Of a stretch of DNA of 64,000 nt, positions 58,075-59,225 are shown one piece after another. Position 1 is the first letter of the stretch; each line of letters begins with the position of its first letter. This DNA is from a virus. Lineage: Duplodnaviria; Caudoviricetes. Under the pieces are notes generated by a model. The model was not told the DNA's origin and ran no database searches. It saw only the letters and a program-made list of their open reading frames with translations. Both the position numbers and the translations under genes were made by a program. The stretch covers positions 1 to 64,000 of IMG/VR virus record IMGVR_UViG_3300027969_004220. One strand, written 5' to 3'.

Positions 58075-58155
58075 GCCTCAGTAGTCCCAGTTGTCTTCTA
58101 AACAACTACGGGTAATTGGAAACTGAAAATGTAGGTTCGAATCCTATCTGGGGTA
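58075..58155 (+). tRNA. Non-canonical tRNA-Arg(UCU)-like RNA (anticodon arm precedes a D-like arm)
   Basis: GCCTCAG/CTGGGGT acceptor; AGTTGT-CTTCTAA-ACAACT directly after it; then GGT-AATTGGAA-ACT, GAAAAT and a canonical T-arm. Confidence 0.6.
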
Positions 58156-58166
58156 CTAATACACAA

Positions 58167-58249
58167 GCCGAGGTGGTGGAATGGTAGACACGCTGGTCTA
58201 AGAAGCCAGTGTCCGAAAGGACGTGCGGGTTCGAGTCCCGCTCTCGGTA
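58167..58249 (+). tRNA. trnL: tRNA-Leu(AAG)
   Basis: CTGGT-CTAAGAA-GCCAG; long variable arm. Confidence 0.8.
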
Positions 58250-58251
58250 CA

Positions 58252-58518
58252 ATGAAAGAAATAAATTATATACAGTACACATCATATACATTATTATCAA
58301 GTGGTGGTGTATTTAAGGTAAATTCAGCAATGCCTTTACCGAATTTAGATAAACACTTGAATGAGAGTATAAACTTAATTATGTTTGTAGTTCATAATAT
58401 AAAGTGTAATGATAAAGAAGTAATGTTTTATAATAGAGATCTATTTAGATTGACATATGGATCAAAAGAATGTTCTGAAATGATTATGAAAATGAAACAT
58501 TCACATATATTAGAATAA
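58252..58518 (+). CDS. Hypothetical protein inside tRNA operon 4
   Basis: 88-aa ORF filling the gap between two tRNAs. Confidence 0.45.
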
Positions 58519-58519
58519 T

Positions 58520-58601
58520 GTCGGAGTGATGAAATGGTAGACGTGCTTGGCTCAAGACCGAGTGTCCAAAAGACGTGTGGGTTCGAATCCCACCTTCGAT
58601 A
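58520..58601 (+). tRNA. trnL: tRNA-Leu(CAA)
   Basis: CTTGG-CTCAAGA-CCGAG. Confidence 0.88.
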
Positions 58602-58609
58602 CAAAATAT

Positions 58610-58696
58610 ACCCCTATGAGCAAATAGGCAAAGCTTGCTGGCTTAGACCCAGTGGAAAACAATGATACATTCTCGGTTCGAGTCCGAGTAGGGGTA
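58610..58696 (+). tRNA. trnL: tRNA-Leu(UAG)
   Basis: GCTGG-CTTAGAC-CCAGT; acceptor ACCCCTA/TAGGGGT. Confidence 0.75.
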
Positions 58697-58802
58697 CAAA
58701 GAAAAATTAAAAAAGATTAGGTAGATTAAAAAACTAATAGTATATTTGTACTATAAATAAAGATAAACAAAAAGGGACAATAAAAATTTAATATATAATA
58801 TA

Positions 58803-58892
58803 ATGAAAACAAATACTGTAAATATTAATGTGATTACGATTACGAATTGTGTGAATAGCACGACTTCGGGTAATGAGATATGTATGGTATAA
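58803..58892 (+). CDS. Attenuator leader peptide 5 (Asn/Thr/Val/Ile-AUU/Cys)
   Basis: MKTNTVNINVITITNCVNSTTSGNEICMV; precedes a terminator and Asn/Ile/Val/Cys/Thr tRNAs. Confidence 0.85.
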   Translation: MKTNTVNINVITITNCVNSTTSGNEICMV

Positions 58893-58920
58893 AGTTAAAG
58901 TATATTATAATAAATTCATA

Positions 58921-58951
58921 AAAACCCGAACTCAAAAAGTTTGGGTTTTTT
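58921..58951 (+). terminator. Attenuator terminator 5
   Basis: AAAACCCGAACT-caaaa-AGTTTGGGTTTT plus T-run. Confidence 0.9.
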
Positions 58952-58970
58952 CATGTCAAAAAATAAATAT

Positions 58971-59041
58971 TCTTCTATAGTGAAATGGTATCACGTCTGA
59001 CTGTTAATCAGTTATTCCAGGTTCGAGCCCTGGTGGAAGAG
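58971..59041 (+). tRNA. trnN: tRNA-Asn(GUU)
   Basis: CTGA-CTGTTAA-TCAG; G73. Confidence 0.9.
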
Positions 59042-59047
59042 CAAAAT

Positions 59048-59135
59048 TACTGGGTTGCCATAGCCAGGTCGAATGGTTCGGACTGTTAATCCGATGAGCA
59101 TCGCTCCACCGTGGGTTCGAATCCCACCCCAGTAG
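59048..59135 (+). tRNA. trnN: tRNA-Asn(GUU) with long variable arm
   Basis: TCGGA-CTGTTAA-TCCGA; extra arm GAGC-ATC-GCTC; G73. Confidence 0.75.
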
Positions 59136-59144
59136 CAAATATAT

Positions 59145-59225
59145 TGGCAAATACCAGCCCAACCTGATAAGTTGGAGAACTGTAGTGGTAAGTTGAAAAC
59201 GTGGGTTCGAATCCCACTTTGCCAA
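59145..59225 (+). tRNA. Non-canonical tRNA-Ile(GAU)-like RNA (anticodon arm precedes a D-like arm)
   Basis: TGGCAAA/TTTGCCA; CCAAC-CTGATAA-GTTGG; then AACT-GTAGTGGTA-AGTT, GAAAAC and a T-arm. Confidence 0.6.

Follow-up and report, generated by a model that had tools for sequence, protein, structure and literature searches.

The DNA analysed here, referred to as the window, comprises the first 64 kilobases (kb) of a 105,621-base viral record (IMG/VR record IMGVR_UViG_3300027969_004220), which is estimated to be 38% complete, and carries two unusual transfer RNA (tRNA) genes at positions 58075-58155 and 59145-59225. As judged from their sequences, both genes probably encode working elongator tRNAs, for arginine (anticodon UCU) and isoleucine (anticodon GAU) respectively, with a permuted D/anticodon domain. 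They are members of a family of tRNAs for Arg and Ile that is widespread in phages and has hitherto gone unannotated. Secondary structure, covariation, contact and identity bases and distribution were observed directly, and from these we infer fold, processing, charging and decoding.

Location and layout of the two genes

The window has a G+C content of 29.6%, and its nearest relatives in GenBank are uncultured huge phages of 630-735 kb. Its tRNA arrays gave 30 calls with ARAGORN and 33 matches with the Rfam tRNA model (RF00005, gathering score 29 bits). Both genes score above this threshold and align with the model end to end (positions 1-71), with 38.1 bits for the UCU gene at 58075-58155 and 38.6 bits for the GAU gene at 59145-59225. 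In these alignments the D-arm falls into a local gap, with 13 or 15 model positions facing 3 or 4 bases, and 21 or 22 bases are inserted between anticodon arm and T-arm. Neither gene thus shows a D-arm hairpin between bases 9 and 26 in its RF00005 alignment, which bears out an earlier interpretation of the window made without database searches (the sequence-only reading), according to which a D-arm is missing after the acceptor strand.

When the sequences are read directly, each gene starts with one strand of a 7-base-pair (bp) acceptor stem followed by U8 and A9, and has an anticodon stem of 5 bp that closes a 7-base loop, CUUCUAA in the Arg gene and CUGAUAA in the Ile gene. The anticodon arm is followed by UAAUUGGA or UAGUGGUA and then by UGAAAAU or UGAAAAC, a T-arm of the form GUxGG-UUCGAAU-CCxxx, the 3' acceptor strand and a discriminator A. 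The sequence-only reading had thus described correctly the coordinates, acceptor stems, 7-base anticodon loops, the stretch with GG, the linker UGAAAAY and both T-arms. Its statement that the anticodons match the operons in which the genes sit holds loosely, with canonical genes for Arg-UCU and Ile-GAU called by ARAGORN at 57812-57886 and 60070-60144.

ARAGORN did not call the first gene and mis-framed the second as a 94-base tRNA-Ile at 59133-59226. Folding of the single sequences gave z-scores of only -1.60 and -2.28, and the minimum-energy structures of the two genes are unlike each other. A covariance model made from their relatives (R1) scores the Arg gene with 74.1 bits and the Ile gene with 86.5 bits, the next best match in the 105,621-base record reaching 33.7 bits. 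This gap, together with the recurrence of the architecture in 100 distinct sequences elsewhere, indicates that the two genes are more than a chance arrangement.

Relatives and the long-range D-stem

Relatives were collected with a search motif of 21 letters that covers linker and T-arm and allows Y before the T-stem. Scanning a viral contig collection led to 89 stretches, and 82 of the 89 full-length motif sites share the architecture and are regarded as family members; the remaining seven comprise an unrelated sequence in five copies, a site on contig L036 and a degraded one on contig L042. For covariation analysis, 64 distinct sequences were aligned with MAFFT with no structure fitted (alignment A1). 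In the fetched loci, R1 gave 103 matches of at least 44.9 bits from 67 sources, 100 of them distinct, and canonical tRNAs of the same DNA score at most 38 bits. Members are 75-90 bases long, most of them 77-83, and 35 of the 100 distinct ones are without the search motif. The covariance-model search that the sequence-only reading had proposed as a check was thereby carried out on viral contigs, and the homologues are these 100 distinct sequences.

In the alignment of 64 sequences, a strand of three bases on the 5' side of the anticodon arm pairs with one of equal length on its 3' side (columns 12-14 with 38-40; 91.7% of cells paired), all three pairs being changed on both sides, and RNAalifold predicts this long-range helix unaided. 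Its pairs are canonical in 100, 99 and 73 of 100 sequences, and on the family tree each side needs 10, 29 and 32-34 changes. Family-wide, 97.8% of the cells are paired in the acceptor stem, 97.5% in the anticodon stem and 97.2% in the T-stem, with covariation in acceptor and anticodon stem. The 5' strand of the long-range helix is followed by exactly one base and the anticodon stem, which is the spacing of normal positions 23-25, 26 and 27. The 3' strand is followed by an invariant U-A-R, one to three bases and GG, which is the spacing of 10-12, 13, 14, 15 … 18, 19. Because the spacing is canonical on both sides and UA-R…GG comes right after the 3' strand, the helix is best read as the D-stem in its normal polarity, and the segment 10-21 would consequently now lie inside the variable loop. 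On the sequence evidence, then, the D/anticodon domain is circularly permuted, closed from 43 to 10 and opened between 21 and 22.

Tertiary contacts and element map

U8, A9, U13 and A14 are invariant in all 100 distinct members, and the GG of positions 18 and 19 is present in 99. Bases 15 and 48 are A-U in 60 members and G-C in 40, with zero exceptions, and they are also complementary in 35/35 members lacking the search motif; this covariation is the pattern expected of the Levitt tertiary pair. When the two columns are left out of tree building, at least 13 changes are needed for each base on the resulting tree, and the partner follows in 13/13 independent pairs when all branches are counted and in 5/5 on well-supported branches, where a sign test on five pairs cannot give a p-value below 0.06. 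The bases that would form the core contacts U8-A14, R15-Y48 and G18G19/T-loop are therefore all in place. The three sets of bases 9/22/23, 10/43-45 and 21/46-48 are close to one central junction in a normal tRNA, and the three new backbone connections (9 to 22, 43 to 10 and 21 to 48) look feasible. The elements of the two genes are assigned as follows, with the support for each assignment in brackets where it was recorded.

58075-58155, plus strand: putative permuted-core tRNA-Arg(UCU), 81 bases; C (58156) after the discriminator, no CCA encoded (RF00005, R1, sequence).
58075-58081, plus strand: Arg acceptor 5' strand, partner 58148-58154; discriminator A at 58155 (sequence, RF00005).
58082-58085, plus strand: Arg U8, A9 and a two-base spacer that ends in the place of 22 (U8 and A9 invariant in 100/100).
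58086-58088, plus strand: Arg CCC, D-stem 3' strand (23-25), partner GGG at 58110-58112 (covariation, RNAalifold).
58089, plus strand: Arg single base in the place of 26, before the anticodon stem.
58090-58106, plus strand: Arg anticodon arm, 5-bp stem, loop CUUCUAA; anticodon UCU at 58097-58099 (sequence, RF00005).
58107-58109, plus strand: Arg three-base connector from anticodon stem to relocated strand, in the places of 44-45 (sequence, alignment).
58110-58123, plus strand: Arg relocated segment, GGG (as 10-12), U13, A14, A15, UU, G18 G19, A20, AAC.
58124-58130, plus strand: Arg A-rich linker UGAAAA and U48, Levitt partner of A15 at 58115 (15/48 complementary in 100/100).
58131-58147, plus strand: Arg T-arm GUAGG UUCGAAU CCUAU (sequence, RF00005).
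59145-59225, plus strand: putative permuted-core tRNA-Ile(GAU), 81 bases; C (59226) after the discriminator (RF00005, R1).
59145-59151, plus strand: Ile acceptor 5' strand, partner 59218-59224; discriminator A at 59225 (sequence, RF00005).
59152-59154, plus strand: Ile U8, A9 and one spacer base in the place of 22 (sequence, family invariance).
59155-59157, plus strand: Ile CAG, D-stem 3' strand (23-25), partner CUG at 59180-59182 (covariation, RNAalifold, tree).
59158, plus strand: Ile single base in the place of 26.
59159-59175, plus strand: Ile anticodon arm, loop CUGAUAA; anticodon GAU at 59166-59168 (sequence, RF00005).
59176-59179, plus strand: Ile four-base connector from anticodon stem to relocated strand (sequence, alignment).
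59180-59193, plus strand: Ile relocated segment, CUG (as 10-12), U13, A14, G15, U, G18 G19, U20, AAGU.
59194-59200, plus strand: Ile linker UGAAAA and C48, Levitt partner of G15 at 59185.
59201-59217, plus strand: Ile T-arm GUGGG UUCGAAU CCCAC (sequence, RF00005).

A relative of the Ile gene on contig L019 has C at the sixth acceptor base, for which a G in the 3' strand compensates. A variant with A>C at 59150 and 59191, matching the state of L019, also occurs in an independent metagenome from a river (run X2).

Anticodons and identity elements

Among the 100 distinct members the anticodons are UAU (30), UCU (24), GAU (22), UCG (14) and ACG (6), with CCU, CCG, CAU and UCA found once each, so that 98/100 carry an anticodon for Arg or Ile. 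Determinants of bacterial tRNA-Arg are A20, C35, U/G36 and A/G/U73, and those of tRNA-Ile include A73 (PMC9976931, in excerpt). Correspondingly placed bases in the family differ by isotype: an A follows G18G19 in 45/46 Arg members versus 2/53 Ile members, and the discriminator is A in 53/53 Ile members and A (24), U (16) or G (6), never C, in the Arg members. U33 is present in 99/100 and a purine at 37 in 100/100. The discriminator is directly followed by C in at least 97 of the 100 members, a full CCA being encoded in 18. When the anticodon is masked, 3 changes on the tree suffice for the Arg/Ile label, versus a mean of 33 for shuffled labels, and one base distinguishes the anticodon UCU from UAU. 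That the family is confined to Arg and Ile would be best explained by a single permuted ancestor with a small number of later identity switches. The sequence-only reading had taken the two genes as a candidate new architecture under selection, a proposal that is supported by the covarying stems, the conserved tertiary-contact bases, the isotype-specific identity bases and the large phage family.

The UCA anticodon, which would read UGA, belongs to a member at L056:440-527 (plus strand) that clusters with Arg-UCG members on the tree and in which the A-rich linker is replaced by a small additional hairpin; this member is possibly a suppressor derived from a permuted tRNA-Arg. Two further members, L083:6559-6648 and L092:2608-2696, share with it a linker broken by about nine bases with a potential 4-bp hairpin, which would be a fifth helix. 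The CAU member at L092:2702-2778 (plus strand) is a candidate Met-like or lysidine-type Ile tRNA. The 13-kb locus L092 as a whole has five members, with the anticodons GAU, UAU, CAU, UCU and UCG.

Distribution and annotation of the family

In one genome each of 185,579 species, the motif was found in 8 stretches. Five of these hold seven members, and in each case the contig belongs to a metagenome-assembled genome and carries tRNA arrays; the sites in the other three, which include the sole isolate, a Streptosporangium, are non-members (35.4, 30.6 and 30.4 bits). Cultured carriers were sought by BLAST of members against GenBank phages, four of the records found being rescored with R1. Nine PA11-like podophage records of Pseudomonas aeruginosa matched (73.2 bits for PA11 and 80.6 bits for HHBS10_2), as did about 25 Streptomyces phage records of about 130 kb (54.9 bits for Mildred21) and the Microbacterium phage Zooman (80.3 bits). 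For Ile-type members, the sole match of this BLAST search against GenBank phages was the uncultured huge phage LR756502, and no cultured carrier was found. The runs listed with the stretch or close relatives number 24, from 14 studies, and are mostly of freshwater, lake, river and estuary DNA.

An ARAGORN call overlaps a member in 7 of the 103 instances only, and the GenBank entries of cultured phages are similar in this respect. The Mildred21 gene is labelled "tRNA-OTHER". The PA11 gene (L114; NC_007808.1 47672-47751) is unannotated and overlaps the last 27 bases of the coding sequence of an HNH endonuclease, and the Zooman gene (OK040793.1 95033-95111; L116 4001-4079) is likewise unannotated and overlaps the start of hypothetical coding sequence 160.

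Putative function and mode of folding

PA11 has a complete genome of 49,639 bases, in which ARAGORN finds no tRNA and Rfam a single one, the permuted Arg-UCU gene, which here encodes its CCA end. The G+C content of this phage is 44.8%, and AGA (184) and AGG (135) make up 319 of its 794 Arg codons (40%). For TC6, a close relative of PA11, a host G+C content of 66.35% is given and the authors report "no intact tRNA genes" (PMC6209634, in excerpt); for two further relatives of PA11, "one putative tRNA" is mentioned (PMC9348578, in excerpt). The T-stems of the PA11 and HHBS10_2 genes differ by two double compensatory changes. The sequence-only reading had left a choice between nuclease-resistant decoders and decoys, and a gene that is the sole tRNA of an AGR-rich phage lends indirect support to a decoder. 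In 85/103 instances no second tRNA of the same anticodon was found in the fetched locus, a number that is an upper bound on absence since the loci are partial. An engineered tRNA lacking the D-arm is accepted by the histidyl-tRNA synthetase, EF-Tu and the ribosome of E. coli (PMC11551756, in excerpt).

The predicted chain would start with the acceptor 5' strand, U8 and A9, and pass over one or two spacer bases to 23-25, then base 26 and then the anticodon arm. From there a connector of two to four bases would lead to 10-12, U13, A14, R15 … G18 G19 and base 20, and an A-rich linker to Y48, followed by T-arm, acceptor 3' strand and discriminator. The D-stem, as a long-range helix, would clasp the anticodon arm, and the D-loop would be an open strand that may still be able to make the contacts U8-A14, R15-Y48 and G18G19/T-loop. 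As these contacts would still be possible, the L-shape should be kept, together with the surfaces for RNase P, the CCA enzyme, arginyl- or isoleucyl-tRNA synthetase (ArgRS or IleRS), EF-Tu and the ribosome. As is usual for tRNAs of phages, they would likely serve as decoders for AGA/AGG and AUA, codons used by an AT-rich phage and poorly read by the host. Pfam families PF00750 and PF00133, used to look for a phage ArgRS or IleRS, have no match in the 105,621-base record, itself an estimated 38% complete.

Six RNA runs hold a small share of the stretch or its relatives; three of them were examined alongside one DNA run, and these RNA runs gave a few read-length contigs at a depth of 2-5, also over spacers.

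Several points weigh against working tRNAs with a permuted domain. The long-range helix has just 3 bp, its pair nearest to the anticodon stem is non-canonical in 27 of 100 members, and one subtype of 77-78 bases has only an invariant CC/GG in it. The three-dimensional argument is topological reasoning about a predicted fold, and the family tree is built on 79 columns and poorly resolved. Since relatives were recruited from the motif of the window itself, the census favours members that have the UGAAAAY linker, and degraded-looking relatives occur, with a truncated T-stem in L042 (35.4 bits) and a poor acceptor stem in the L016 group. Contigs from the RNA runs are of low depth and could be DNA carry-over, and none of them covers 57953-58156. 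Finally, canonical genes for Arg-UCU and Ile-GAU are also present in the window, so that the permuted genes are not needed here to fill gaps.

Other unusual tRNAs of the window and neighbouring genes

A tRNA-Leu(UAA)-like gene at 57901-57970 (plus strand) directly precedes the canonical tRNA-Leu(UAA) at 57979-58065. Acceptor, D and anticodon arms are normal and the variable hairpin is of the Leu type, and the T-arm is swapped for about 17 unrelated bases (31.8 bits with Rfam, 19 model positions skipped). Four further genes on the plus strand, Asn(GUU) at 59049-59134, Val(UAC) at 59899-59981, Cys(GCA) at 60152-60239 and Thr(UGU) at 60555-60635, have long variable regions with 8-15 extra bases, which is unusual for these isotypes. 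The long Asn, Val and Cys genes each lie beside a tRNA of normal length with the same anticodon (starting at 58971, 59988 and 60333), and normal and long Asn tRNAs are also adjacent in LR745206. As far as the sequences tell, the long-arm genes and the permuted Arg and Ile genes look like a second, structurally deviant set of isoacceptors.

Three Rfam tRNA matches on the plus strand were not reported by ARAGORN, at 24002-24132 (44.8 bits, 131 bases), 24580-24663 (38.3 bits) and 22583-22642 (33.6 bits). Near the tRNA arrays of cultured carriers lie genes for RNA-handling proteins: Mildred21 has a Ro-type RNA-binding protein (L115 1-43), and Zooman has both an RtcB-like RNA ligase and an ADP-ribosyltransferase (L116 594-1820).

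Alternative explanations

With considerable reserve, we entertain the idea, made attractive by the pairs of deviant and normal tRNA genes in the window, that the permuted core is a counter-defence device and that the window phage carries a shadow set of deviant isoacceptors beside the normal ones. This set would consist of the permuted Arg and Ile tRNAs, the T-arm-less Leu tRNA and the Asn, Val, Cys and Thr tRNAs with long variable arms. In the permuted members, the surfaces read by translation would be kept and the backbone re-routed via the D-arm/variable pocket, so that host enzymes that recognise or cut the normal tRNA-Arg and tRNA-Ile might fail on them.

An unlikely alternative to working elongators is that the genes specify mimics that sequester or divert a factor acting on tRNA-Arg or tRNA-Ile, be it an anticodon nuclease of the host, a sensor in its defence or an enzyme that modifies tRNA, or else nuclease-proof spare tRNAs of use only where the host destroys the normal ones. 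Such a role would fit the position of each permuted gene in the window near a canonical gene of the same anticodon, and a permuted Arg-UCU gene of LR745206 (L007 3020-3099) likewise adjoins a canonical one (3105-3177). More such pairs of odd and normal genes are formed in the window by Leu-UAA without T-arm and by Asn, Val and Cys with long variable arms, and an altered backbone path around the D-arm with the outer surfaces kept would likewise agree with such a role. PA11, however, is rich in AGR codons and has the permuted tRNA alone. Moreover, a pure decoy needs no conserved A20, A73, U33, purine 37 or C74/CCA end, and no nuclease or defence gene is linked to the family in the material analysed here.

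Much less probable is the structure drawn in the sequence-only reading, in which acceptor, anticodon arm, D-like hairpin and T-arm follow one another as four local helices, the flanks of the D-like hairpin pairing with each other to close it. A local stem of 3-4 bp can be drawn around the GG stretch in each of the two window genes, but the two are in different registers. Over the 64 sequences, the first register has 64.1% of cells paired and zero double changes, and the second has some double changes in 3/4 pairs, yet only 46.8% of cells paired. RNAalifold predicts neither hairpin, and the same bases are claimed by the covarying long-range helix around the anticodon arm. This arm order was therefore abandoned in favour of the long-range D-stem.

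It is hardly credible that the genes are decaying, functionless remnants scrambled by recombination in the tRNA array. The poor detection of the family by tRNA finders (7/103 with ARAGORN), the statement on TC6 cited above and degraded relatives such as the one on L042 would agree with decay, but 100 distinct sequences show compensatory changes in all five helices and in the tertiary pair, occur in Pseudomonas, Streptomyces and Microbacterium phages as well as in many environmental contigs, and retain isotype-specific identity bases.

Equally far-fetched is the processing of a precursor, by cutting and rejoining, to a normal cloverleaf as for the permuted tRNA genes of a red alga. Some carriers do encode RNA ligases, the RtcB-like one of Zooman at a distance of about 2 kb, but the termini of the genes are normal as they stand, canonical order would take three internal cuts and three joins, no RNA ligase is among the 72 annotated features of PA11, and spacing and 15-48 covariation fit a fold of the unprocessed RNA.

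Significance and comparison with known systems

According to a paper of 2024, all known bacterial tRNAs are cloverleaves (PMC11551756, in excerpt). No published description of the permuted-core architecture was found in the full-text literature searched, the scope of which leaves aside subscription journals and supplements. A natural tRNA with an internally permuted core would apparently be a new architecture working in bacterial translation. If this holds true, the family is a natural exception to the cloverleaf rule that is compatible with the bacterial translation machinery, and a natural experiment in which the three-dimensional contacts of tRNA are retained though the order of the chain through them changes. 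It would bear on the recognition of tRNA by RNase P, synthetases, EF-Tu and the ribosome, and also on the evolution of architectures, duplication and loss being a possible route to an internal permutation. As an alternative tRNA backbone it is a potential scaffold for engineered translation systems. The annotation gap implies that phage tRNA inventories, and arguments from codon usage, are incomplete. As cultured carriers exist, among them phages of harmless Microbacterium and Streptomyces hosts, the family is open to experiment.

With canonical tRNA (RF00005) the family shares the 7-bp acceptor stem, the anticodon arm with 5 bp and 7 bases, the 5-bp T-stem with a loop of the UUCGAAU type, U8, A14, R15-Y48, G18G19, the discriminator, C74 and the identity bases for Arg and Ile. 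It differs in having 10-21 between anticodon arm and T-arm and no D hairpin at 9-26. Altered backbone connectivity is also tolerated in the circularly permuted tRNAs with new 5' and 3' ends that Pan, Gutell and Uhlenbeck reportedly made in vitro (Science, 1991); those constructs are laboratory-made and not internal permutations.

Mitochondrial tRNAs that lack the D-arm (animal mt-tRNA-Ser AGY and those of nematodes and mites) likewise have no hairpin after the acceptor strand and extra pairs flanking the anticodon stem (PMC7609411, in excerpt; see also PMC4013460). They are shortened and flexible and have lost the G18G19/T-loop contact (PMC7609411, in excerpt), whereas the phage members are full-length (75-90 bases) and retain U13-A14-R15…GG, and hence are not of the mitochondrial type. 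Mitochondrial tRNAs use co-evolved mitochondrial factors, the phage family presumably ordinary bacterial ones.

In the permuted tRNA genes of Cyanidioschyzon merolae the order of segments is also a circular permutation of the cloverleaf order, but there the whole gene is permuted, with the 3' half before the 5' half, and processing restores a normal tRNA (PMC3978253, in excerpt). The phage genes have both acceptor strands at their ends in the usual order, which sets them apart from the red-alga type; their permutation is internal, and the mature RNA is expected to remain permuted.

Class II tRNAs and allo-tRNAs also have extra bases between anticodon arm and T-arm, occur in phage tRNA clusters and are missed or misnamed; they keep a normal D-arm and have a variable hairpin of their own, and acceptor/T stems of allo-tRNAs are 8/4 or 9/3 (PMC5389517, in excerpt). 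In the phage family these stems are 7/5 and the extra bases are a D-stem strand and the D-loop. Lacking a D hairpin, and with local hairpins of 64.1% and 46.8% pairing that RNAalifold does not predict, its members do not belong to class II. A further related case is the mini HisT of E. coli, a tRNA that is no cloverleaf and is accepted by bacterial synthetase, EF-Tu and ribosome (PMC11551756, in excerpt). Mini HisT, however, is man-made, has its D-arm deleted and needs a mutation in a host RNase (PMC11551756, in excerpt), whereas the phage tRNAs are natural and have the elements of the D-arm reordered.

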